DNA of 45,041 bases from a virus (lineage: Duplodnaviria; Heunggongvirae; Uroviricota; Caudoviricetes). Each line of letters begins with the position of its first letter. Positions within the stretch are counted from its first letter, which is position 1. Positions 2,710 through 44,616 of the stretch are shown in pieces. The stretch lies in the IMG/VR virus record IMGVR_UViG_2802429245_000013, one strand, 5' to 3'. The position numbers and the translations under genes are program-made. The notes under the pieces were generated by a model. It was given only the letters and a program-made list of their open reading frames with translations, ran no database searches and had not been told where the DNA came from.

Positions 2710-3456
2710 TTATTTTGCCTGTTTCATTTTTTCCACCCTCTCAAGCATTCTTTTTACATTTGATGGAGGATAGTTAAATTCATCGCCGTCTCCAAAAGAA
2801 ATTTTTATAGGCTTCATTTTCATAACCAATTCTTTCAGAACCGCTTTACCAATTTCAGTTTTTGGTACTATAAAACCATTTCCATACAAGCATGATTTAT
2901 AAGTTTTATAATATTCACCATTAATCAAAATTGGTGGATACTCTAATGGTCCATCAATTTGCACTGAATTATCGCAAAATCCATTGCCTTTAGATTTTGA
3001 AGCAATAAAAATAGCTATTGTCCCATCATCGCCATACATCAGGAATCTATTTTTACTAACACCTTCCAGTGGAGGTAATATTATCAGTGCACCATCAATA
3101 TACCATTCAGCGTAATTCTTTGATTCATTGATTATGTTCTCATTAATTTCATTTAAAGATGAATATTCCCTGAATGCATTAGAATACCATTGTCGAACAC
3201 ATGATTCTGTTTTGCACTTCTCTCTTTCATTCCACAAGTCTGAAACAATTTTTCTAAAAGCTTTCTTATCAGCGCTCTCTAACTTTACTTTTTGATATAA
3301 AGAATTTAATTTATCATCAAGTTCAGATAATTCACTGTTGCTGCAAATTAACTTTTCAGAATATGATTTAGCTTTCGAGCAATCAAAAGATACCGCATTC
3401 GCAGTTCCGATTTGTAATAAAAAAGCAAACACTACAAATAATTTAAACTTAATCAT
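2710..3456 (-). CDS. Secreted moron protein: signal peptide plus DUF1311/LprI-like Cys-containing N-terminal domain, unknown C-terminal domain
   Basis: ORF track 248 aa; N-terminal hydrophobic leader MIKFKLFVVFAFLLQIGTANA; motif CSKAKSYSEKLICSNSELSELDDKLNSLYQKV...C...C; strong RBS AAGGAG 7 nt before ATG; visibly AT-rich relative to flanks. Confidence 0.6.
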   Translation of the reverse strand: MIKFKLFVVFAFLLQIGTANAVSFDCSKAKSYSEKLICSNSELSELDDKLNSLYQKVKLESADKKAFRKIVSDLWNEREKCKTESCVRQWYSNAFREYSSLNEINENIINESKNYAEWYIDGALIILPPLEGVSKNRFLMYGDDGTIAIFIASKSKGNGFCDNSVQIDGPLEYPPILINGEYYKTYKSCLYGNGFIVPKTEIGKAVLKELVMKMKPIKISFGDGDEFNYPPSNVKRMLERVEKMKQAK

Positions 3457-3485
3457 CCGTAATCTCCTTAAAAACAGGAGATTAA

Positions 3486-3513
3486 ATTTTACCCATTCTT
3501 AATGTCCGTTCAA
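3486..3513 (-). promoter_or_regulatory. Candidate sigma70 promoter of the moron (TTGAAC-16-TAAAAT on minus strand)
   Basis: Minus-strand hexamers read from sequence: -35 TTGAAC (complement of 3508-3513), 16-nt spacer, -10 TAAAAT (complement of 3486-3491), about 25 nt upstream of the RBS. Confidence 0.4.
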
Positions 3514-3580
3514 GTTCATACTTTACAACCGCGCCCAGTTGAGTATGATTAAGCGCATGAGGCGTCGAAACCTCTTCTCA

Positions 3581-3659
3581 GTGCGGTCACAACCAACCCC
3601 GTTAGTGTTGGATTTTTTATGCCTGCTATTTAGTGATGGCACAATGTGCGGTCACATCC
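3581..3659. repeat. Two copies of a 14-bp direct repeat GTGCGGTCACA(A/T)CC, 65 bp apart, upstream of antA-like gene
   Basis: 3581-3594 gtgcggtcacaacc and 3646-3659 gtgcggtcacatcc; candidate regulator binding sites. Confidence 0.5.
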
Positions 3660-3788
3660 CCGAACAATGTCGGGAGGGCGACGAATACAACACCCGAAAG
3701 GGGAATAAGTCCGCGGCCTCACTGAGCCGTTTCGAACCTCCCGGCTCCACTCCGATAGTGGAAATTCGAAAAAATCAGTGAGGTCGTT

Positions 3789-4358
3789 ATGACAATACAA
3801 TTAATCCCCGTTTTCAACGGAACTATCTCAAACGAAACCGCCCTACTCTGTAATGCTCGTGATCTGCACGCTTTTCTTGGTGTAGGTAAGGTTTTCGCTG
3901 CCTGGATTACATCCCGCATCGCAGAATACGGATTTACAGAAAATCAAGATTACATTTTGCTTTCCAAAACAGGAAAGCAATCGTTAGGAGGCAGAGGAGG
4001 ACATAACCGCAAGGACTACCACCTCACCCTAGACACTGCCAAAGAGCTGGCAATGGTCGAGCGCAACGAAAAAGGACGCCAGATCCGCCGATACTTCATC
4101 GAGTGCGAGAAGAAGCTGCGCGAAGATACCACCAGCACACAATCCCCTCTGAATGTTGACATCATCATGCGCGTCAGAAACGGCTCGGTTACCCACATTG
4201 AGCACCACAAATCAGGCTCAGTTATCACCACAGAATGGGCAATTCACTTACTACGCAAAAGTGGATGGATTGTCATGCCACGCGATGAACTTCTTAACAC
4301 GCCACTGGCCCAACTGATGCCCGAAAATTTGACTCAAACCGGAACCTGCGTCCGGTAA
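3789..4358 (+). CDS. AntA/AntB-type phage antirepressor-like protein, 189 aa
   Basis: ORF track; N-terminal region ...ALLCNARDLHAFLGVGKVFAAWITSRIAEYGFTENQDYILL... resembles AntA antirepressor domain; opposite strand to surrounding tail genes; RBS GAGG 5 nt before ATG. Confidence 0.55.
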   Translation: MTIQLIPVFNGTISNETALLCNARDLHAFLGVGKVFAAWITSRIAEYGFTENQDYILLSKTGKQSLGGRGGHNRKDYHLTLDTAKELAMVERNEKGRQIRRYFIECEKKLREDTTSTQSPLNVDIIMRVRNGSVTHIEHHKSGSVITTEWAIHLLRKSGWIVMPRDELLNTPLAQLMPENLTQTGTCVR

Positions 4359-4681
4359 CTGGTCCCATTAAAAAACACAACATCAATGTTATAGGTGGGG
4401 TTCTCTGCCCCATCTACCTTTGAAATTGCCAGCGATGCAAAATACCCGGCAAACTGTTGCTGAACCATGTTCACATAGTAGTCCGGGTAAATTTGCTGCA
4501 CGATGCACTGCTGCGCTGGAATGCCGTAATTCGCGTAAAACGGCGACTCCCCCAACCCCAGCTTTAACGTCTGAATGAGCGTCGTCAGCCAGCCGTAGGA
4601 GAAATCACCGCTGGCGTCTGACTCTACTGCAACCCATTTTTTGTTGCCGTTCGCGTCGGTGACGCGGCCCCATGTTCTCAT
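4334..4681 (-). CDS. Phage tail/baseplate protein, 115 aa (occupies gp25/W-like wedge position)
   Basis: ORF track; size and position between spike (V-like) and J-like genes; sequence itself not recognisably gp25-like to me. Confidence 0.4.
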   Translation of the reverse strand: MRTWGRVTDANGNKKWVAVESDASGDFSYGWLTTLIQTLKLGLGESPFYANYGIPAQQCIVQQIYPDYYVNMVQQQFAGYFASLAISKVDGAENPTYNIDVVFFNGTSYRTQVPV

Positions 4682-17686: not shown

Positions 17687-18500
17687 GTTTGCCCTTCTCC
17701 GTTAAAAATTCGTCGGGTAGTTTCTGAGGGGCGTAGATCGGCAGAGCATCGCAACTGCAATAAACCTCCTCCCCGGCAGCAGTGATTTCGTCATAAAAAC
17801 CATATACGGGCTTAATAAGCCCCTGCTCCAGCGCCCACGAATCGCGGAGGAGATAAATTTTCTCGTCGCGCTCTTTGTGGTCCTGTCGGTATTTGTAGCC
17901 CGGACGCCGCCAGTTAGAATGCCAGCGCAGAGCAATCGCACCACTCTGAACAGCCAGCAGATACTTAACGTTGCTCGCCAGCTTATGTCCCTGGTCAATT
18001 GCCACCCGGCGACTGATAAAATCCATATCCTTCACGGACTTCTGAAAACCGGACTTCACTTCCCGGCGATCAATTTCGCTCACCCCGTCAGGCGGAATGG
18101 ACGTAACCCATCCCTGAAAACGCTGTATAGTTTTCTCGATAGCCTGTTCGCGGTTGAGTTTTATCAGGTTGGCACTGGCGAAAATTCGCCTGTCGAGTTC
18201 CTTGCGAAACTCAGGTTTCAGTTTTTCAACAGTGATTTTTTTAGGGCCGTCAGGAGGCTGATCCCGTAATGCCCCGCCGTCGATGACAAGACGGCTGTAG
18301 ATAGCGGTGAGGTGTTTTCTGGCTACGGTATCATCAGGGGTTTCTCGCTGAGCGGCTACACGGAGTTTCCGGCACCATTCGAGCAATGATTTTTCGCTAT
18401 CCCACCCGTGATTTACGTAGTAGTTAACGGCATCCGTCAGAACCTCATATAGCGTCCTGATCCGTTTCTTCTTCCTCACCGCCCGGCTGGAAATTGCCAT
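17667..18500 (-). CDS. Head morphogenesis protein (Mu F / SPP1 gp7-like), about 277 aa
   Basis: ORF 17667..18638 trimmed to ATG at 18500 with RBS AGGAG 7 nt upstream; follows portal gene. Confidence 0.45.
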   Translation of the reverse strand: MAISSRAVRKKKRIRTLYEVLTDAVNYYVNHGWDSEKSLLEWCRKLRVAAQRETPDDTVARKHLTAIYSRLVIDGGALRDQPPDGPKKITVEKLKPEFRKELDRRIFASANLIKLNREQAIEKTIQRFQGWVTSIPPDGVSEIDRREVKSGFQKSVKDMDFISRRVAIDQGHKLASNVKYLLAVQSGAIALRWHSNWRRPGYKYRQDHKERDEKIYLLRDSWALEQGLIKPVYGFYDEITAAGEEVYCSCDALPIYAPQKLPDEFLTEKGKREFNRA

Positions 18501-19881
18501 CAGGCGTCTCCTGCTTCGGTGGTTCATAATTCGCCAGCGCGTCCACATCAATGATGAGTGGAGCTTCGCCATAGGTTTGCGTGGCATTAACAAGGCTTGC
18601 CAGCCATTCAGTGACGGCGGCACGGTTTTCAGGATCAACCTGTGGCGACACGGCAGAGAAAAGTGCTATCGCCTGTTGAATCACTTTACTGTCGCTTTCC
18701 CGGCGTTTGTCCGGCGACTCCTCCACCAGCTCCTGCCATGTCGCGGTAAATTCACGTCGCCACTGGTAAAACGTGGTTTTATAGTCATCAGTTATGATGT
18801 CCGGGTAATCATTTTTCAGCGACTGATAAAATTCCTCGTTCCAGGCGATGTACTGCACCAGGCGTTCGAAATAATCCATCACGGGTTCAATCTGCTGGCG
18901 TACACCATCGATATACTGGCTGATGGCTTTCGAATCTTCGGTCCCCTCACCGAAACCATTCGAAAAGGCTTCCTCTTTGATGAGGATCGCCGGAACGTCA
19001 CTCCCTGACGCAATATCGGAAATAATATTGTCGCGTGCAGCGTTTAGCGCACCATCGATGTTTTGTAGATTTAGCGAGGTAACGTCCTCATCCTTCCCGA
19101 TACTAAGCACACCTTTATTTTTTGCCTCTTTGACGTTTTCCCTTTTTCGTCCCGTGGCGGCAGCCATGAGCCCGTCAAGTTTCGAACCGTACTGCACAAC
19201 TTTAGCTACCAGTACGCCCGCCTTCTGGCTGACGAGATCATTCGCCTCCATCGTGTTGATATAGGATTTCAGGGAATAAAGAACGCGCTGAAACACACTT
19301 CGTCCGGTGAATCCGAACGATGAACTCTGAAACTCCAGATAAATCGGTGTGCCGTTGAAGATTTTCAGTGTGCGTGACGGATGCCAGTCTTTTCCGCCAA
19401 TCTTCAGTTTTTTATTGGCTTCCTGGAAAAACGGGCTGTTGGGGTTCTGGTCAGTCACCATCGAACCGGAAGCGTTCAACGGGTCCCACGCGTTGATATA
19501 CACGTCATCTTCTGTCAGTCCGAACGTCGGAAGCGGTTCACGACATGAAACACTGTCGGTGCCCACGCCGATCGCTGCGGCACCGTAGCAACGAGACAGA
19601 AAAAACAGATTTTTAATCTTCTCGTTAACCTTCATACGTTCCCATACCTCCTGGAAACGCCGCACAACCCGCTCGTCAGGGTCTGTCTCCACGTTGTACT
19701 GGCGCGGCTTACACATCGCCATAAGTATGGGTTTTTCGACAAGTTTCCCGCCCAGCGGGTGGTACTGCCACAGCAGTTTACACAGTTCATAGCCAATGTC
19801 GGTTCCCGGCTGAATTTCTTCAGCCTCAAGAATGCGCATCAACGAAGAACTGAGATTTACAGAAATCTCGATCTCAGCCAT
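18445..19881 (-). CDS. Portal protein, 478 aa
   Basis: ORF track; size and position directly after terminase large subunit; acidic C-terminus. Confidence 0.6.
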   Translation of the reverse strand: MAEIEISVNLSSSLMRILEAEEIQPGTDIGYELCKLLWQYHPLGGKLVEKPILMAMCKPRQYNVETDPDERVVRRFQEVWERMKVNEKIKNLFFLSRCYGAAAIGVGTDSVSCREPLPTFGLTEDDVYINAWDPLNASGSMVTDQNPNSPFFQEANKKLKIGGKDWHPSRTLKIFNGTPIYLEFQSSSFGFTGRSVFQRVLYSLKSYINTMEANDLVSQKAGVLVAKVVQYGSKLDGLMAAATGRKRENVKEAKNKGVLSIGKDEDVTSLNLQNIDGALNAARDNIISDIASGSDVPAILIKEEAFSNGFGEGTEDSKAISQYIDGVRQQIEPVMDYFERLVQYIAWNEEFYQSLKNDYPDIITDDYKTTFYQWRREFTATWQELVEESPDKRRESDSKVIQQAIALFSAVSPQVDPENRAAVTEWLASLVNATQTYGEAPLIIDVDALANYEPPKQETPDGNFQPGGEEEETDQDAI

Positions 19882-22523: not shown

Positions 22524-23433
22524 CCGGCACGCTGCCAGAGACTCGACTTTCGAATACGGAATCATTTGTCACCCCCATTGATATGCAGGGTGTCTTCTTC
22601 CTGTATTTTTCGTGAAGGATTTTTACTGCAGCGTTGTTCCAGGTGACCTGATGGTGAATGCGTTTATGGCTGGCACCCATCAGTGAGATTTTTACGCACG
22701 ACGGCGCATACATGACGGAGTAAAAACTTTTAACGTAGGTTCCGGAATCCAGATACAGCTCGGTCATTCCGCCGCTGTTTTTCTGCGTCTGTTTCTGCCC
22801 TAACTGGACAGCACCGATCGTCATAAACAATTCACCACGGCGACCGAGATTCGTGTACGTATTCACATCCTCGTTAATGCGCCCCATGAATGAGAACGGT
22901 CGCTCGACCGAACAGATAAAGCTGTTCATTGCCTTGCGTTTCACCCATGAAGCATGGCCGCCATTGTCACCAAGAAAATCCCCGCCCTGCGACATAGCGA
23001 TGGAAAGAGCAGGTATTGATTCGTAATACGCCAGCATTTCAGAAAGGATCGCATCCAGTTTCCTTATCGGAAAATAGGCCTGGTCATAGTTGCGATCCAC
23101 CCGAAACTGAAACTCGTGATAATCATCATCGAGCTGAATGAAGTATTTACACCCGACCTTTTTTGCCAGGTCAAAACTGGCATTACGGGCGTAAAAAATT
23201 GAGCGACGATCACCGAAATTATCGGCTTCGTCAAAACGACTGGCGATATCGGCTTTGGAAAACACCAGCACCTGTTCACCAAATTCTGCTATGTACTGAT
23301 GCCGGGTTTTATCTTCATCATCAACGACGATAAAAATTTTCCCGGTATAGCCAGCACGACGCAAAGTCCGGTAAGTCAGAACTTTGTCCGGTCGCCCGTG
23401 AGTCAGAATAAAGGCGCAAAAATCATCACGCAT
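22501..23433 (-). CDS. Unknown enzyme-like protein, about 310 aa, possible GT-A-fold DxD-type transferase
   Basis: ORF 22501..23451 trimmed to ATG at 23433 with RBS GGGAGG; strand-DxD-like YFIQLDDDYHEF and N-terminal CAFILTHGRP...KIFIVVDDED suggest a Rossmann-like nucleotide-dependent transferase; start overlaps ParB-like stop by 8 nt. Confidence 0.35.
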   Translation of the reverse strand: MRDDFCAFILTHGRPDKVLTYRTLRRAGYTGKIFIVVDDEDKTRHQYIAEFGEQVLVFSKADIASRFDEADNFGDRRSIFYARNASFDLAKKVGCKYFIQLDDDYHEFQFRVDRNYDQAYFPIRKLDAILSEMLAYYESIPALSIAMSQGGDFLGDNGGHASWVKRKAMNSFICSVERPFSFMGRINEDVNTYTNLGRRGELFMTIGAVQLGQKQTQKNSGGMTELYLDSGTYVKSFYSVMYAPSCVKISLMGASHKRIHHQVTWNNAAVKILHEKYRKKTPCISMGVTNDSVFESRVSGSVPDDCTTNS

Positions 23434-24214
23434 ATTCCTCCTCCCCGCCATGCATGATCTCCACCATGCACTGCGTCATCCGGACAAAACCATTTTCGAT
23501 GGCTTGCTGATAATCAATGATCACCAGCGCCGACTCTTCGAAAAGCGCCTGAACTTCAGCGGGCGCATGGGCGTAATAGTCCGCAATTCTGCTGAAATTA
23601 AACACTGTGTGGCGTTCTGCCGCACACAGGAGGAATTTTTCGATATCAGGATCAAGGGACGCCGAACGTATCCGGCTGACCAGCTCCTGAGTTTTCGTAT
23701 CGTCGTACAGTTCGCCGATATCCGGTTTATCGCCTGACGGCTCATAAACAGGTGTATCAATTTTCGTCGTGTACTGCTCCTCCTCATTTCCGGTACCTGG
23801 CAAAACATCCGTCAACAGTTCATCAATTTCTGTTGGGCTGAATCCTGTCAGGGAGATATCAAAATCAGCATTGATTAGCTCCGACAGTTCCACCCGTAAC
23901 AGTTCTTCATCCCAGCCAGCGTTGAGCGGCAGGCGATTATCTGCCAGGCGGTACGCCTTTTTCTGATCATCCGTCAGGCCAGACAGAACAATGACCGGAA
24001 CCGAATCCATTTTGAGCATTTCAGCCGCCATCACGCGACCGTGACCAGCAATAATTTCGCCCTTTTCGTCAATCAGCACCGGATTGGTCCAGCCGAATTG
24101 CTTAATGCTTTCTACCAGTTGTGCCACCTGCTCAGGGCTGTGTGTCCTGGCGTTGTGCGCATACGGAGACAGTTTTTGCAACGGGCGATAGACGATCTTT
24201 AATTTCTCGCTCAT
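23426..24214 (-). CDS. ParB N-terminal domain (ParB/sulfiredoxin-like) protein, 262 aa
   Basis: ORF translation has ParB-N hallmark ...NPVLIDEKGEIIAGHGRVMAA... near N-terminus. Confidence 0.6.
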   Translation of the reverse strand: MSEKLKIVYRPLQKLSPYAHNARTHSPEQVAQLVESIKQFGWTNPVLIDEKGEIIAGHGRVMAAEMLKMDSVPVIVLSGLTDDQKKAYRLADNRLPLNAGWDEELLRVELSELINADFDISLTGFSPTEIDELLTDVLPGTGNEEEQYTTKIDTPVYEPSGDKPDIGELYDDTKTQELVSRIRSASLDPDIEKFLLCAAERHTVFNFSRIADYYAHAPAEVQALFEESALVIIDYQQAIENGFVRMTQCMVEIMHGGEEEYA

Positions 24215-24332
24215 ACAGCCTCGCTTGATGAATAAAAAAGCTCACTAACAGCCAGTGCGCTGGGTGCGCGGCGGGTGCTGTTGGTGAGCCTGGCATTATC
24301 GCAGCCCCTCACTGAAGGGCTGCTGTAATGCC

Positions 24333-24750: not shown

Positions 24751-25128
24751 TCAGCGTTTCAATTGGAAGTGCGGCCCGTCCTTCAGCGTTTTCCAGTCCC
24801 CGCCCCATTCGATGGCGACTCCCAGCTCTGCGGCAGCCTGCTTAAATGCCTGTGCGATTTTCTCGTACAGAGGCCAGTCCCATGACACCTGGCTGCCAAC
24901 ATAAGCCACAACATCCACAGCATCACCGGTCAGGTGGCGGCTGTTCATGGTCTGGCTTTTCCCTTCCGCGACCAGCTGTTTCTGGCGTTCTTTCGTGCGC
25001 AGCCCTTCCGTAATACCGAAATCAACCTCCGTCAATTCCAGCGCACGGCGAACGACAGCAACCAGCTGTGGTTTGACGCCCTCCAGATTTTTTTCACTGC
25101 GACGACTGAATCTGAATTTACCCGACAT
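24751..25128 (-). CDS. Endolysin, L-alanyl-D-glutamate peptidase (peptidase M15 / VanY-like)
   Basis: Motifs ...SRHLTGDAVDVVAYVG...W...DGPHFQL typical of M15 phage endopeptidases; ATG at 25128 with RBS GGAGG 5 nt upstream (ORF-track first codon is GTG). Confidence 0.75.
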   Translation of the reverse strand: MSGKFRFSRRSEKNLEGVKPQLVAVVRRALELTEVDFGITEGLRTKERQKQLVAEGKSQTMNSRHLTGDAVDVVAYVGSQVSWDWPLYEKIAQAFKQAAAELGVAIEWGGDWKTLKDGPHFQLKR

Positions 25129-25130
25129 GC

Positions 25131-25406
25131 TCACCTCCGGAATGAAAGGATTTTTGAAACGTTCCCGCGTGCACGTATCACCAGCACGCAGAACAGCAGA
25201 TTAAGCCCCACCGCCAGCCAGTTCGCCGCTAACGGGCGACCGCACAGATAGCTGAGGGGTGCAAAGGCATACAGCAGCATCAGCAGCCAGGCCAGCCATG
25301 ACATCAGCGGTTTGTGTCTGGAATCACGGCGACGATAAAAAAAGAGCGTCAGCACGATAACCGTGCATAACGCCACATTCAGCAATCCGGAAAGGTTACT
25401 TAACAT
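25131..25406 (-). CDS. Small membrane protein (holin/antiholin-like), about 91 aa
   Basis: ORF 25131..25460 trimmed to Met with RBS GGAGG; two to three hydrophobic segments; stop overlaps endolysin start. Confidence 0.45.
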   Translation of the reverse strand: MLSNLSGLLNVALCTVIVLTLFFYRRRDSRHKPLMSWLAWLLMLLYAFAPLSYLCGRPLAANWLAVGLNLLFCVLVIRARGNVSKILSFRR

Positions 25407-26546: not shown

Positions 26547-26621
<75 letters not shown>

Positions 26622-26624
26622 ATA

Positions 26625-26700
<76 letters not shown>

Positions 26701-29008: not shown

Positions 29009-29164
29009 TTACTCCTCAGGTTCGTAAGCTGTGAAGACAGCGACCTCCGTCTGGCCGGTTCGGATTCGTACCTCGCAGAGGTCTTTCCTCGTTACCAGTG
29101 CCGTCACTATGACGGTTAAACAGATGACGATCAAGGCGATTAACATCGCCTTTTGCTGCTTCAT
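29009..29164 (-). CDS. hok: Hok/Gef family type I toxin (HokD/RelF-like), 51 aa
   Basis: Translation MKQQKAMLIALIVICLTVIVTALVTRKDLCEVRIRTGQTEVAVFTAYEPEE is a canonical Hok-family sequence (single TM, conserved C-terminal periplasmic part). Confidence 0.85.
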   Translation of the reverse strand: MKQQKAMLIALIVICLTVIVTALVTRKDLCEVRIRTGQTEVAVFTAYEPEE

Positions 29165-29222
29165 AGCCTGCTTCTCCTTGCCTTTCGGCACGCAAGAGGC
29201 TAATCTTCAGTTGTCGAGACAT
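29016..29222 (-). CDS. mok: Mok-like overlapping reading frame (translation coupled to hok)
   Basis: ORF 29016..29312 in a different frame overlapping hok almost completely and ending 7 nt from hok stop, as in hok/mok/sok loci; start uncertain. Confidence 0.4.
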   Translation of the reverse strand: MSRQLKISLLRAERQGEAGYEAAKGDVNRLDRHLFNRHSDGTGNEERPLRGTNPNRPDGGRCLHSLRT

Positions 29223-29435
29223 AAGACTGGCCTCACTTCGATTTATAGTCGGGTGGGGCTTTTCTCTATCTGCCTTTTGGTGTTCATGCCCGAGGCAGAT
29301 AGCCTCAAGCACCCGCAGTAATTCTACTTAACTCTCCTTTTCCCGCAAACCGTTTTTATCCCCATCGGCAAATCGAATACACAACCAGCGCCACCGCCAG
29401 TGCAATTCCTACCGTTGTGAATGCTTCAGGCCAGG

Positions 29436-34281: not shown

Positions 34282-35070
34282 TTACCCCCTGAAGCCTGGC
34301 GGGATCGCACTGTCCGGCAACGAGACGGTGTTAACCTGTCGGAGCAACGTCTCAGGCCGAACGCCTTTCGGCGCGAACAAGCCCTGGTATTCATTGGCGA
34401 TGCTGTGTCTAATCACCTGCTCAGGGGTAAAACCCTGCTGGCGGAATTTTTCCAGCTCCCGTATCGCCCCGTTAGCGCCCTGCTCCGTTCGAATCGGTTT
34501 TCGTAATGCCTGTCTGAACCGGACCCACTCATGCCAGAGTGTTTCCGGCAACCAATCGGGCAACTCAATAGCCTCCGGCTCGAATTTTTTAGATGCTCGT
34601 TTTTGGCGAGGGGGATTTAGGGGGAGATCAGTATTTATATCTTCCTCTTCCTCTTCCTCTGGTAACGCTTTTTGATCCGTTTGTGTAACGCTGCCAGCGT
34701 TACCTTTTCGTTTCAGCTCGCGTAATTTTGTAACCCTCTCGTTTGTAATCGCCCGTTTTTTAGAGCTTTTTCCGTTATGGCGTTCAAAGTTAGGTAGAGA
34801 AAGCCCAACGTCATTTTCGACCAGCCATCCAACCTGAATTAACGCATCAGCAAAACCAGCCATAAAAGTGATGCGATCTATTGCACTTTTTGTAACGCCG
34901 CGAGCGTTACAATCTGCATTACCGTCTATCATTTGTTGATCCGCCCATGCCCAGAAGCGAATAACCTTCCCTAATGCGGCATCTGGATCAATATTCAGAA
35001 TCTCAGCAAGCCTGAATATTTCCGGCTTATCCGGCGTAATAACCTCGAGCTTTATCCAGTTTGAAGCCAT
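34282..35070 (-). CDS. Replication initiation protein (O-like / YdaU-like), 262 aa
   Basis: ORF track; position between CII-like and DnaC-like genes; acidic linker EEEEEED; contains two 19-bp palindromes. Confidence 0.5.
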   Translation of the reverse strand: MASNWIKLEVITPDKPEIFRLAEILNIDPDAALGKVIRFWAWADQQMIDGNADCNARGVTKSAIDRITFMAGFADALIQVGWLVENDVGLSLPNFERHNGKSSKKRAITNERVTKLRELKRKGNAGSVTQTDQKALPEEEEEEDINTDLPLNPPRQKRASKKFEPEAIELPDWLPETLWHEWVRFRQALRKPIRTEQGANGAIRELEKFRQQGFTPEQVIRHSIANEYQGLFAPKGVRPETLLRQVNTVSLPDSAIPPGFRG

Positions 35071-35102
35071 TTGTTTTCACCTTGTAACGCTCGCAGCGTT
35101 AC
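34685..35102. repeat. Three 19-bp palindromes GTAACGC-N5-GCGTTAC at 34685-34703, 34892-34910 and 35084-35102
   Basis: Read directly: gtaacgctgccagcgttac, gtaacgccgcgagcgttac, gtaacgctcgcagcgttac; two inside the O-like gene, one just upstream of its RBS. Confidence 0.6.
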
Positions 35103-35147
35103 ATTTAACTGATACCGAACAAAACAATCCGGCACGATTAATTTCAA

Positions 35148-35570
35148 TCAATGCACTACGACAGAATCACCGGGCGACCCACCACCGCTGAAATGTGCTT
35201 TCCGGTAAACGGCCTGGACTGCATCATCATGCGCATCAATTGCCGTACTCAACGCTTCCTGCGCCGCCAGTAATGCACGGCGTTCCAGGGTATCGAAGAT
35301 GCAGAGTCGGTGACGCAGCTCGCGCGGAAGAATTGCCAGAACCGCAGGGATCAGTGTCTGAATTTTTTCCCTTTGCGCTTTCGTTTCACCTTTTAACCAA
35401 CGGTGATAGATGTTCTGCTGATTATTCCAGTCCTTGCCTGGTACCAGGGGCAATTCGCCGCCCCCCTGGCGCAGATATTCTTCAGTAATTGCATTGGCTA
35501 CCCATGCCTGCCCTTTTTCAGCGGCCAGGGCTAACAGCACTGATTCGATGTGCTCATGCCTGATTTTCAT
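35148..35570 (-). CDS. CII-like / YdaT-like regulatory protein, 140 aa
   Basis: ORF track; second gene of the Cro-side operon. Confidence 0.45.
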   Translation of the reverse strand: MKIRHEHIESVLLALAAEKGQAWVANAITEEYLRQGGGELPLVPGKDWNNQQNIYHRWLKGETKAQREKIQTLIPAVLAILPRELRHRLCIFDTLERRALLAAQEALSTAIDAHDDAVQAVYRKAHFSGGGSPGDSVVVH

Positions 35571-35829
35571 GAATCAACTCCTGTGCATTTTGTGTGTTAG
35601 CCTTACATCCAACAGGTAAACCATCGGTCGGATTCGGGTAGATATCAGGCCGGAGTTCATGAGGTGTAACCTCGAAATTCGTTACTTCAGCAACACGTAA
35701 TGCTTTTTCAGGGCTGAATCTTTCATAGCCCCCCAGCACTCGACTTACATGCACCTGAGATAAACCCGTTAGCTTCCCAAACTGTAACTGGGTGATATGT
35801 TTCTCTTTTAAATAGTCTCTTAAGTTCAT
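35554..35829 (-). CDS. Cro-like HTH regulator (YdaS-like), about 91 aa
   Basis: ORF trimmed to ATG at 35829 with RBS GAAGGT; HTH QLQFGKLTGLSQVHVSRVLGG; divergent from repressor gene. Confidence 0.55.
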   Translation of the reverse strand: MNLRDYLKEKHITQLQFGKLTGLSQVHVSRVLGGYERFSPEKALRVAEVTNFEVTPHELRPDIYPNPTDGLPVGCKANTQNAQELIHENQA

Positions 35830-35859
35830 AGCCAACCTTCTACGTTATGCCTCGAACAA

Positions 35860-35888
35860 ATATTAGCTCCACTAATTTTAAAGATCAA
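35860..35888 (-). promoter_or_regulatory. Candidate Cro-side promoter (TTGATC-17-TAATAT on minus strand)
   Basis: Hexamers read from sequence in the 100-bp divergent intergenic region. Confidence 0.45.
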
Positions 35889-35904
35889 CAGTCAGACTAT
35901 CTTT
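35880..35904. promoter_or_regulatory. Operator-like inverted repeat AAAGAT-N13-ATCTTT in the immunity intergenic region
   Basis: Read from sequence; overlaps both candidate divergent promoters. Confidence 0.3.
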
Positions 35905-35930
35905 GATAATATTGGTAAAACAAATAAACT
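35903..35930 (+). promoter_or_regulatory. Candidate repressor promoter (TTGATA-16-TAAACT) giving a leaderless or near-leaderless transcript
   Basis: -10 hexamer ends 6 nt before the repressor ATG and no Shine-Dalgarno is present. Confidence 0.4.
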
Positions 35931-35936
35931 CTATGT

Positions 35937-36398
35937 ATGAAAAAAACACGCGAAGTGATTGCAACTCCAGAAGCGAGCAAGAATTTAAAAGCCGCATGGA
36001 ATGCAAGAAAAAAAGAGCTGAAGCTGACTCAAGAGCTGGCGGCTGAGTTGTTGGGATTCGAATCTCAAGGCACCGTTAGCCAGTATCTGAACGGCAAGAT
36101 ACCGGTAAATACCGACGCTGCGCTAAAATTTGCGGCTCTATTAAAGGTAAAACCAGAGGACATTCGAGAAGACCTTAAAGACTTAATGAATTATGTAAGA
36201 TCATCAGATACTTATGATGATAGCTTTTCAGGCAAAGGATGGAGGCTGGTCAATGAAGAACAGGCTGAGTTACTTAACCTCTTCGAGATTCTACCTGCGT
36301 CAGAAAAAGCCAAACTCCTTAACCAGCTACGTGGACTAAACAAGCTCTACGAGGAAGCCTTCGAGAACATGCTGGCACTAAAGAAACGTAACCAGTAG
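35937..36398 (+). CDS. CI/RacR-like prophage repressor (XRE-type HTH), 153 aa
   Basis: HTH LTQELAAELLGFESQGTVSQYLNGK; divergent from Cro-like gene; own terminator downstream. Confidence 0.6.
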   Translation: MKKTREVIATPEASKNLKAAWNARKKELKLTQELAAELLGFESQGTVSQYLNGKIPVNTDAALKFAALLKVKPEDIREDLKDLMNYVRSSDTYDDSFSGKGWRLVNEEQAELLNLFEILPASEKAKLLNQLRGLNKLYEEAFENMLALKKRNQ

Positions 36399-42501: not shown

Positions 42502-42696
42502 ATGCGGTATGAAAAAGTCAAACCATGTCCGTTTTGTGGTTGTCCATCAGTAACGGTGAAAGCCATTTCAGGATATTACCGCGCAAAGTGTAACGGATGC
42601 GAATCCCGAACCGGTTATGGTGGAAGTGAAAAAGAAGCACTCGAAAGATGGAATAAACGAACCACTGGAAATAATAATGGAGGTGTTCATGTATAA
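42502..42696 (+). CDS. ralR: RalR (Lar) restriction-alleviation protein / type I toxin, 64 aa
   Basis: Translation MRYEKVKPCPFCGCPSVTVKAISGYYRAKCNGCESRTGYGGSEKEALERWNKRTTGNNNGGVHV recognised as RalR. Confidence 0.8.
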   Translation: MRYEKVKPCPFCGCPSVTVKAISGYYRAKCNGCESRTGYGGSEKEALERWNKRTTGNNNGGVHV

Positions 42697-42877
42697 AATT
42701 ACCGCCACTATTGAAAAGGAAGGTGGCACTCCTACTAACTGGACAAGATATTCAAAATCTAAACTAACGAAATCAGAATGCGAAAAAATGCTCTCAGGGA
42801 AAAAAGAAGCAGGCGTTTCCAGAGAGCAGAAAGCAAAACTGATAAATTTTAATTGCGAGAAACTTCTGTCATCGTGA
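42689..42877 (+). CDS. ydaC: YdaC-like protein, 62 aa
   Basis: ORF 42617..42877 trimmed to MYKITATIEKEGGTPTNWTRYSK... with RBS GGAGG 5 nt upstream; overlaps ralR end. Confidence 0.55.
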   Translation: MYKITATIEKEGGTPTNWTRYSKSKLTKSECEKMLSGKKEAGVSREQKAKLINFNCEKLLSS

Positions 42878-44354: not shown

Positions 44355-44472
44355 AAAAAAGACCGGAATACAGAAATTCGAGTAAATTTCGGGGGATTTC
44401 GGGGAGATGCTTGCAACTAATTGATTTTAAATACAATTAAAAAGAGACCGAATACGATTCCTGTATTCGGTC
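44355..44472. repeat. att-region repeats: three copies of GACCGAATAC(A/G) (one inverted, forming a 10-bp-stem palindrome) plus tandem TTTCGGGG(G/A)
   Basis: 44361-44373 gaccggaatacag; 44446-44472 gaccgaatacgattcctgtattcggtc; 44386-44406 atttcgggggatttcggggag. Confidence 0.4.
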
Positions 44473-44616
44473 CAGGGAAATGGCTCTTGGGAGAGAGCCG
44501 TGCGCTAAAAGTTGGCATTAATGCAGGCTTAGTTGCCTTGCCTTTTAAGAATAGATGACGACGCCAGGTTTTCCAGTCCGCGCGTAAAGTGGTCAGAAAA
44601 AAAGCGCGTTTATCAT

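Follow-up and report, generated by a model that had tools for sequence, protein, structure and literature searches.

A probable c4-type antisense immunity module on an sRNA-Xcc1 scaffold upstream of an AntA-type antirepressor gene in a Rac-site prophage

What keeps an antirepressor gene silent when it lies antisense within the tail module of a prophage? This question is raised by ant, an AntA/AntB-family gene in the virus record IMGVR_UViG_2802429245_000013, a 45,041-nt stretch of DNA (hereafter the window; coordinates are positions in it) that is a Rac-site prophage of Escherichia coli. The sequence of the locus is 100% identical to that of E. coli strain C5 (NZ_CP010122). The original prediction, made from the letters alone, placed an AntA-type gene on the + strand and took two near-identical 14-bp repeats upstream of it as likely binding sites for a regulator other than LexA. 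The check with hidden Markov models bore out the gene assignment: the product matches Pfam AntA (PF08346) with 90.5 bits (cutoff 27; E = 1.1e-25) over its N-terminal residues 22-93 and PHROG anti-repressor families with E values of 3e-66 to 7e-54, and the RefSeq annotation at the identical C5 locus agrees. The LexA part is also supported, since no SOS box of the kind found at LexA-controlled (Gifsy type) antirepressors (CTGT-N8-ACAG with at most one mismatch) was present in 3400-3800. The key element had been overlooked, namely an RNA of the sRNA-Xcc1 family ahead of ant. We propose, with a probability of about 0.8, that 3522-4358 is a c4-type antisense immunity module of the P1 immI type built on an sRNA-Xcc1 scaffold. 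Control of an antirepressor by a co-transcribed and processed antisense RNA is already known from phages P1 and P7, and the sRNA-Xcc1 family is catalogued.

The RNA upstream of ant, its pairing sites and its leader

An Rfam scan of 3300-4500 gave a single match, to sRNA-Xcc1, and it was full-length (model positions 1-87 of 87). The C4 (RF01695), c4-2, c4-a1b1 (RF03163) and isrK models had no match at E ≤ 1 in this interval. The elements of the locus, including those that bear on the ribosome-binding site (RBS) and the Shine-Dalgarno (SD) sequence of ant, are as follows (MFE, minimum free energy).

3522-3549, + strand: predicted sigma-70 promoter (-35 TTTACA, 3522-3527; 16-nt spacer; -10 TATGAT, 3544-3549)
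3559-3574, + strand: 5′ leader hairpin GAGG-CGUCGAAA-CCUC, recognized by eye, with a1 in its loop
3565-3571, + strand: a1, UCGAAAC, complementary to the a′ junction of the RNA (duplex of -8.7 kcal/mol)
3577-3588, + strand: b1, CUCAGUGCGGUC, an SD-dead mimic of the ant RBS (duplex with the RNA loop of -18.6 kcal/mol)
3581-3594, + strand: first 14-mer, GTGCGGTCACAACC, overlapping b1 and the conserved 3′ flank of b1
3593-3611, + strand: terminator-like hairpin CCAAC-9 nt-GUUGG, followed by A and then U6 (3613-3618)
3633-3655, + strand: spacer hairpin GUGAUGGCAC-AAU-GUGCGGUCAC, from MFE folds
3646-3659, + strand: second 14-mer, GTGCGGTCACATCC, in the 3′ arm of the spacer hairpin
3669-3753, + strand: sRNA-Xcc1-family RNA (RF02221; cmscan 72.4 bits, gathering threshold 53, E = 5.8e-13)
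3714-3727, + strand: b′, CGGCCUCACUGAGC, the anti-SD, formed by the hairpin-2 loop and adjacent stem bases
3729-3736, + strand: a′, GUUUCGAA, the single-stranded 3′ junction of the RNA, complementary to a2 and a1
3747-3761, + strand: small hairpin CCACU-CCGAU-AGUGG right after the RNA, including the CCA of its tail; alignment columns 191-195/205-209, kept in 8 of 10 sequences
3765-3771, + strand: a2, UUCGAAA, the 7-nt target of a′ (duplex of -6.2 kcal/mol)
3775-3786, + strand: b2, UCAGUGAGGUCG, the target of b′, including the ant SD GAGG
3789-4358, + strand: ant, AntA/AntB-family antirepressor gene, 189 aa (Pfam, PHROG, RefSeq)

The small RNA (sRNA) consists of an outer stem (3669-3677/3737-3745), a hairpin 1 capped by a GAAA tetraloop, a hairpin 2 at 3713-3730 and a UCCA tail (3746-3749). 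The hairpin-2 loop (CCTCACTGA/CCUCACUGA; 3717-3725) is the exact reverse complement of TCAGTGAGG/UCAGUGAGG at 3775-3783, a stretch that ends with the SD (3780-3783), 5 nt ahead of the ATG of ant. The full b′/b2 duplex is 13 bp long (-23.9 kcal/mol). The upstream copy carries the same sequence with a dead SD: b1 and b2 (TCTCAGTGCGG/ATCAGTGAGG) differ at the first base, which is outside the 11-nt core, and by an A to C change that turns GAGG into GCGG (cores TCAGTGCGG vs TCAGTGAGG).

The promoter was the best match in a consensus scan (10/12 positions). In 10/10 loci of the subfamily, the conserved leader start GAGGCGTCGAAACCTC is preceded, at a distance of 7-9 nt, by the end of an equivalent TTGACn-17/18-TAnnnT; the sequences further upstream of these promoters are unrelated, and homology with Rac-SA53 starts at 3558. 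From the position of these motifs, transcription would start near 3556. The resulting leader of ∼230 nt carries both 14-mers and the sRNA-Xcc1 RNA.

The terminator-like hairpin of the leader is nearly invariant in 10 subfamily leaders, and a terminator scan missed it because of its 9-nt loop. The spacer hairpin is kept with compensatory changes (GUGGUUGCAU/GUGCAACCAC in locus L001, GUGAUAGCAC/GUGCUGUCAC in L066 and UGGUUGAU/AUCAACCA in L050). When the full 240-nt leader of 10 relatives was submitted to RNAalifold, mixed alternative long-range pairings over invariant columns were obtained, and the output was not used as a structure; it was informative for a1/a′ alone, with covarying pairs at columns 9/178 and 10/177. 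Neither the c4-a1b1 nor the isrK model of Rfam matched the stretch with the a1 hairpin, b1 and the terminator (3559-3660, and its equivalents in loci L003-L206). This stretch is conserved and covaries with the sRNA, and it may deserve a family of its own.

A third exact TCAGTGAGG was found on the minus strand at 24307-24315, where 0.17 copies are expected by chance. It is contained in the loop of a hairpin resembling a terminator, GCAGCCC-TTCAGTGA-GGGGCTGC, with the lysis genes (M15 peptidase, 24751-25134) on one side and a ParB_N gene (23426-24214) on the other. This copy may be a coincidence; as a target in trans it was set aside, since it is in such a loop and just a doubtful 54-aa open reading frame (ORF) comes after it.

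Covariation of the RNA with its targets

If the hairpin-2 loop pairs with the RBS of the downstream gene, loop and target are expected to change together in other loci. IMG/VR was scanned for the invariant hairpin-1 core AATACAANACCCGNAAGGGGAA, which yielded 120 loci with 98 distinct sRNA segments. Among these 98 viral elements there were 75 distinct hairpin-2 loops, so that the loop is hypervariable on a conserved scaffold. A second, independent set, with one genome per bacterial species, gave 77 distinct loops. The sequence that paired best with the loop was, in most loci, located right on the SD of the following ORF, 10-40 nt past the RNA; examples are CUCGUUGA with AUCAACGAGGUCAUUAUG, ACCUGUGGA with ACCACAGGAGC..AUG, and ACUUUUGG with UCCAAAAGGAGU..AUG.

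The pairing of b′ with b2 was tested with the target restricted to an SD-proximal interval. Cognate pairs were more stable than non-cognate ones in the 75 viral elements (-11.04 vs -7.58 kcal/mol) and in the 77 genomic elements (-11.81 vs -9.23 kcal/mol), and in neither set was the difference reached in 10000 permutations (0/10000). When the loop was compared with the whole 330 nt downstream, the rank signal was weak (7/75 at rank 0), owing to noise from GC-rich stem flanks and from SD motifs, which are common; the clear result came with the restricted target.

The loop also matches a site ∼80 nt before the RNA. For b′/b1, cognate and non-cognate energies were -12.84 and -10.78 kcal/mol in the viral loci, and -13.95 and -10.63 kcal/mol in the genomic loci (0/10000 permutations in both). 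This upstream site repeats the SD target, except that GGAG or GAGG has become GCGG, as in ACTTCAAAGCGG/ACTTCAAAGGAGG and AAGTTCAGCGG/AAGTTCAGGAG. In 57 of 73 loci b1 contains [GA]CGG, and it has an SD-like motif in 5; the downstream site is SD-like in 60/73. A T-run is present between b1 and the sRNA in 60/73 loci.

The second element behaves alike. In 78 elements, the mean Watson-Crick run of a′ was 5.09 with its own a2 vs 3.83 with that of others, and 5.18 vs 4.14 when its own upstream region (a1) was compared with those of others (0/10000 permutations each). Pairs of a′ junction and site include UUUGAG/CUCAAA, UCUGAA/UUCAGA, UCUUAA/UUAAGA and UACGAA/UUCGUA. The sRNA thus covaries with its downstream and upstream sites, and the loop diversity is consistent with a heteroimmunity specificity that would be set by a′ and b′.

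The genes downstream of the RNA are predominantly of the antirepressor type. Pfam matches in the first downstream ORFs of 67 elements were KilA-N (18), P22_AR_C (13), Rha (9), Bro-N (9), P22_AR_N (6), ORF6N (6), AntA (5) and ANT (1); the remainder were mostly small ORFs, and in some relatives a first ORF of ∼85-100 aa follows the RNA. One protein can match several of these families, and we therefore count antirepressor-type domains in at least 35 of the 67 genes (KilA-N, Bro-N, P22_AR_N and ORF6N add up to 39, less 4 possible overlaps).

As to the RNA itself, CC is found at the end of the outer stem, or 1 nt after it, in most of 94 elements. At the gathering threshold, 19 related loci matched sRNA-Xcc1 alone, and not C4, c4-2, c4-a1b1 or isrK. 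RNAs of the family occur in Alpha-, Beta-, Gamma- and Deltaproteobacteria, and matches to the core motif also in assemblies of Acidobacteriota, Bacteroidota, Planctomycetota and Verrucomicrobiota. The module at 3522-4358 is probably self-contained and horizontally mobile.

Elements may be repeated within a genome. The Stx2 phage TL-2011c (locus L002, JQ011318) has tandem sRNA-Xcc1 elements (2540-2629 and 3079-3164) near its int end, the first before a 94-aa ORF and the second before an antirepressor gene, each with its own loop/SD match. In Xylella, arrays of up to five copies have been described (PMC12189769).

Likeness to P1 c4, proposed mechanism and alternatives

In the P1 record, the C1 operator Oc4 is followed by P2c4, P1c4, 'putative a1', 'putative b1', the 77-nt C4 RNA, a2, b2, icd and ant1/ant2. 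Common to P1 immI and the window are a promoter, a1, b1, a terminator hairpin, a two-element RNA, a2, b2 over the RBS, and the antirepressor gene, all on one strand and in one transcript. In the window, the structured RNA is co-oriented with ant and upstream of it behind a shared promoter, a′ and b′ are complementary to a2 and b2 with b2 on the RBS, and the upstream copies a1 and b1 precede the terminator hairpin (3565-3571, 3577-3588 and 3593-3618, respectively). The SD-killing A to C change is seen in P1 as well (b1 GTTAGTGCGG vs b2 GTTAGTGAGG; in the P1 sequence, b1 GTTAGTGCGGACAA is followed by the terminator hairpin, and b2 is GTTAGTGAGGCCGTAACTATG). The c4 and sRNA-Xcc1 RNAs are also alike in topology, with an outer stem, a tetraloop hairpin, a hairpin with a variable loop, a single-stranded junction and a CCACC-like tail. 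RNase P releases c4 from its precursor; b′ blocks the RBS and a′ adds specificity (PMC5320573, PMC12197685).

On this basis, a single constitutive promoter would drive the leader, the sRNA and ant, in this order. Some transcripts would terminate at 3618, and the sRNA would be excised from those that read through. Its 5′ end would probably be cut by RNase P, by analogy with c4: a closed 9-bp outer stem followed by UCCA, a tRNA-like NCCA tail, is a putative signature of this enzyme. The hairpin-2 loop b′ would then pair with b2 on the ant SD and the 3′ junction a′ with a2, which would block ribosome binding and leave Ant untranslated in the lysogen. The sRNA is expected to act in trans and might, while still part of the precursor, act in cis too. 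The a1/b1 leader would most likely yield a short RNA with a decoy or feedback role, titrating the sRNA or sensing how much of it is present, like short IsrK in Gifsy-1. Ant itself would target a repressor.

Several findings weigh against the assignment to the c4 type. The C4 model had no match at this locus, and the sRNA-Xcc1 model had none to P1 c4, even at E ≤ 10; P1 itself is matched by C4 (68.8 bits), c4-a1b1 (51 bits) and, over the a1/b1-terminator stretch, isrK (35.1 bits, gathering threshold 50). Since there is no reciprocal recognition by the models, homology with c4 is not demonstrated, and the architecture alone is common. Rfam places C4 and c4-a1b1 in clan CL00128 and sRNA-Xcc1 in none. 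The a1 and b1 sites are labelled 'putative' in the P1 record. No icd-like small ORF was found between target and ant in the window, so that the translational coupling and Rho-dependent termination of P1 are not transferable as such. The interval searched yielded no b2 in some loci, particularly those of the Xanthomonas group. Finally, b′ and b2 form a cis duplex in the MFE fold of the entire leader, and trans action is therefore not required by the data.

There are also plain differences from P1. The target is the SD of ant itself, whereas in P1 it is that of the small upstream ORF icd. Hairpin 1 of the window RNA has a conserved AAUACAA/GAAU internal loop, unlike P1 c4, and no C1-type operator is evident, whereas the C1 operator of P1 overlaps one c4 promoter. 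The module resides in the tail operon of a lambdoid-type prophage at the Rac site, and P1 is a plasmid prophage.

The cis pairing leads to an alternative in which the leader acts purely in cis, the anti-SD of hairpin 2 sequestering the ant SD in a structural switch or thermosensor, with no excised trans RNA. In both the MFE and the centroid fold of 3570-3810, the SD is bound in cis by the hairpin-2 region (z-score -3.9), and covariation does not separate cis from trans pairing. However, relatives accumulate as a discrete RNA of ∼88 nt (PMC2996969) or as an abundant non-translated RNA in enterohaemorrhagic E. coli (EHEC; PMC5331693), and the closed outer stem and the NCC(A/C) tail are conserved far beyond what an anti-SD strand needs. 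Furthermore, the upstream a1/b1 mimics mainly make sense for a diffusible RNA, and P1 c4 acts in trans. We regard a leader confined to cis action as unlikely.

A second alternative is that the RNA is mainly a trans regulator of host genes, linked to virulence as proposed in Xanthomonas and Xylella, and that its place before ant is incidental. Indeed, sRNA-Xcc1 has been described as trans-acting and controlled by HrpG/HrpX, with many predicted host targets (PMC2996969, PMC12189769), and the window holds the third TCAGTGAGG site at 24307-24315. Yet in ∼150 independent elements the variable loop changes together with the SD of the gene next to it, the downstream genes are mostly of the antirepressor type, and the third site, in an intergenic hairpin loop, is not at a convincing RBS. 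This explanation is very unlikely.

We then return to the two 14-mers. The original description of them holds: they are identical at 13 of 14 positions, share an exact 11-mer and start 65 bp apart. When the 332-bp intergenic region was shuffled 5000 times, 46 shuffles (∼1%) contained an exact direct repeat of 11 nt or more; the repeat is real and modestly unlikely by chance. The search for the motif elsewhere, proposed for the host genome, was made in the 45-kb window, where no further exact copy of the degenerate 14-mer was found. A coding sequence across the repeats had been named as a point that would speak against them; the ORF that spans both (3539-3781, 80 aa, TTG start) has no Pfam match and was rejected, since homologous leaders differ by 1-2-nt indels and the ORF is thus not coding.

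Both 14-mers are downstream of the conserved sigma-70 promoter and hence transcribed. The direct repeat was considered as a defining feature of the module and rejected: across 73 loci the b1 flank scored 4.70 against its own spacer and 4.54 against those of others, a difference reached in 831 of 10000 permutations. In phage TL-2011c, copy 2 is unchanged and copy 1 is replaced by a different b1, CCCAAAAGCGG, that matches the loop of its own RNA. The pairing of the sRNA loop with copy 2 is weak (-10.6 kcal/mol), and the likeness of the two copies is particular to this lineage. That the 14-mers are operator half-sites for a protein repressor of the ant promoter is therefore very improbable, although the 11-nt core is seldom met in shuffles, each copy has a short GTG..CAC dyad and P1 offers the precedent of an operator over a c4 promoter, because both copies are 25-100 nt downstream of the promoter and not over it, copy 1 changes along with the loop of the sRNA in homologues, copy 2 forms one arm of a hairpin that compensatory changes maintain, the repeat relationship is absent in relatives, and the 45-kb prophage has no other copy.

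The c4-type module also resembles the IsrK-STnc1160-orf45-anrP locus of Gifsy-1 (RF01394). There, transcription from the isrK promoter either ends at an internal terminator or continues into the antirepressor operon, short IsrK activates translation of this downstream operon in trans, and a processed stable RNA is found downstream (PMC4825925). The likeness lies in the leader ending at an internal terminator, the read-through, the stable RNA downstream and a short leader RNA with an effect on translation in trans (predicted for the window), and the sub-threshold isrK match over the P1 a1/b1-terminator stretch loosely ties P1 and Gifsy-1. Unlike Gifsy-1, the window has a leader that the isrK model does not recognize and no orf45-type coupling ORF. 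The published IsrK model is that of an activator working through alternative mRNA structures, and has no c4-like repressor.

In phage P22, the antirepressor gene ant is in the second immunity region, immI, and is partly held by a small antisense RNA, sar, over its RBS. That RNA is encoded on the opposite strand, is fully complementary and has no mimic sites; the main control is exerted by the proteins Mnt and Arc. The CI RNA of satellite phage P4 (seqA/seqC) causes premature transcription termination of replication genes, with no occlusion of an antirepressor RBS, and is built on a different scaffold. According to PMC4825925, it is a processed small immunity RNA inside the transcript that it controls, with complementary sites on both sides, like the window RNA.

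Within its own family, the window RNA shares the model RF02221 with sRNA-Xcc1 of Xanthomonas campestris, which has been described as an integron-borne trans-acting sRNA tied to virulence regulators. This founder is an RNA of ∼88 nt, established by Northern blot and end mapping (PMC2996969). Like the window RNA, it lies upstream of a potentially harmful gene and on the same strand, in this case the toxin gene symE in a mobile cassette, and the mechanism was called 'divergent' (10.1101/2025.06.18.660453). The copy of EHEC O157:H7 EDL933 is abundant in RNA-seq and has almost no ribosome footprints (PMC5331693), and a study of phage APSE noted a copy upstream of an ORF6N gene without more. A description of sRNA-Xcc1 RNAs as c4-type anti-SD regulators with a1/b1 mimics was not found in the Rfam clan assignment or in the part of the sRNA-Xcc1 literature covered here, and earlier recognition is possible.

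A wider hypothesis, which we put forward tentatively and which in its joint form is rather doubtful, is that sRNA-Xcc1 is a second, very widespread scaffold for programmable c4-type immunity RNAs, with three-part circuits and loop barcodes. If so, each circuit would consist of an SD-dead decoy leader (a1/b1 and terminator), an antisense RNA and an SD target. The decoy leader would sponge or sense the antisense RNA, and a LexA-independent threshold for translation of the antirepressor (or toxin) would be set by the amount of terminated leader relative to that of processed sRNA. The hypervariable loops would be orthogonal immunity barcodes among co-resident prophages, and the leader, unrecognized by any Rfam model, would count as an RNA motif not yet catalogued.

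The c4-type reading itself supplies a testable function, with a cognate target, for an Rfam family whose role has been open since 2010, and it recasts the annotations in EHEC, Xylella, Xanthomonas and Haemophilus as prophage or cassette immunity elements and not as host virulence regulators. A single layout fits P1 c4, Gifsy-1 IsrK/STnc1160 and sRNA-Xcc1, and the function of a1/b1 could be approached through ∼150 natural covarying examples. For the window antirepressor, and for those of many Stx phages that share its leader, the gate would be RNA specificity and not LexA, which would bear on the cross-induction of co-resident prophages. The scaffold, with its swappable a′/b′ loops, would be a naturally modular translational repressor and a possible engineering part.

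The insertion slot and other features of the prophage

The antisense placement of ant in the tail module, noted in the original prediction, is confirmed by the ORF coordinates. The gene is flanked by minus-strand tail genes, a 115-aa gene in the gp25 position (4334-4681), whose 3′ end overlaps that of ant by 25 bp (4334-4358), and a Baseplate_J gene (1441-2667). It had been taken for an insertion, and rightly so: the 115-aa homologue in Klebsiella phage Chronis directly adjoins baseplate J, with nothing between them. In Rac-SA53, pPE4 and the window the same slot is occupied by ant plus variable cargo. In the window the cargo is the following gene, which is outside the regulatory module.

2710-3456, - strand: LprI-like lipoprotein gene, divergent from ant (248 aa; signal-peptide-like N-terminus; weak Pfam match to LprI, a lysozyme inhibitor, below cutoff; RefSeq name)

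Rac-SA53 and pPE4 carry unrelated genes there, and the slot thus resembles a moron hot-spot inside the baseplate operon. To reach baseplate J, late transcripts of the tail operon must traverse ant, the sRNA and the leader in antisense, which would yield a lytic-phase RNA complementary to the sRNA. A terminator-like hairpin of the minus strand is located within the 5′ end of ant (3806-3822).

The pPE4 record ('Actinobacillus phage vB_Apl-pPE4', PP818812; locus L126) encodes a baseplate-region protein 99.1% identical to those of E. coli phage Rac-SA53 and the window, an unexpected finding given the Pasteurellaceae host to which this phage is assigned. The annotated ant of pPE4 is just 18 bp from the neighbouring gene, so that the leader may be missing or mis-annotated.

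Elsewhere in the window, matches at the Rfam gathering level were obtained on the minus strand for the RalA antitoxin RNA (42695-42873), the sok antitoxin RNA (29159-29314) and two tRNA genes (26550-26700). The host pair SraC/RyeA-SdsR/RyeB, at the same level (44435-44579, both strands), marks the chromosomal flank of the prophage. In the head module, between the terminase gene and a DUF2213 gene, RefSeq annotates a 478-aa 'anti-CBASS protein Acb1 family protein' (34641-36077 in the E. coli C5 locus L123, corresponding to about 18097-19533 of the window).

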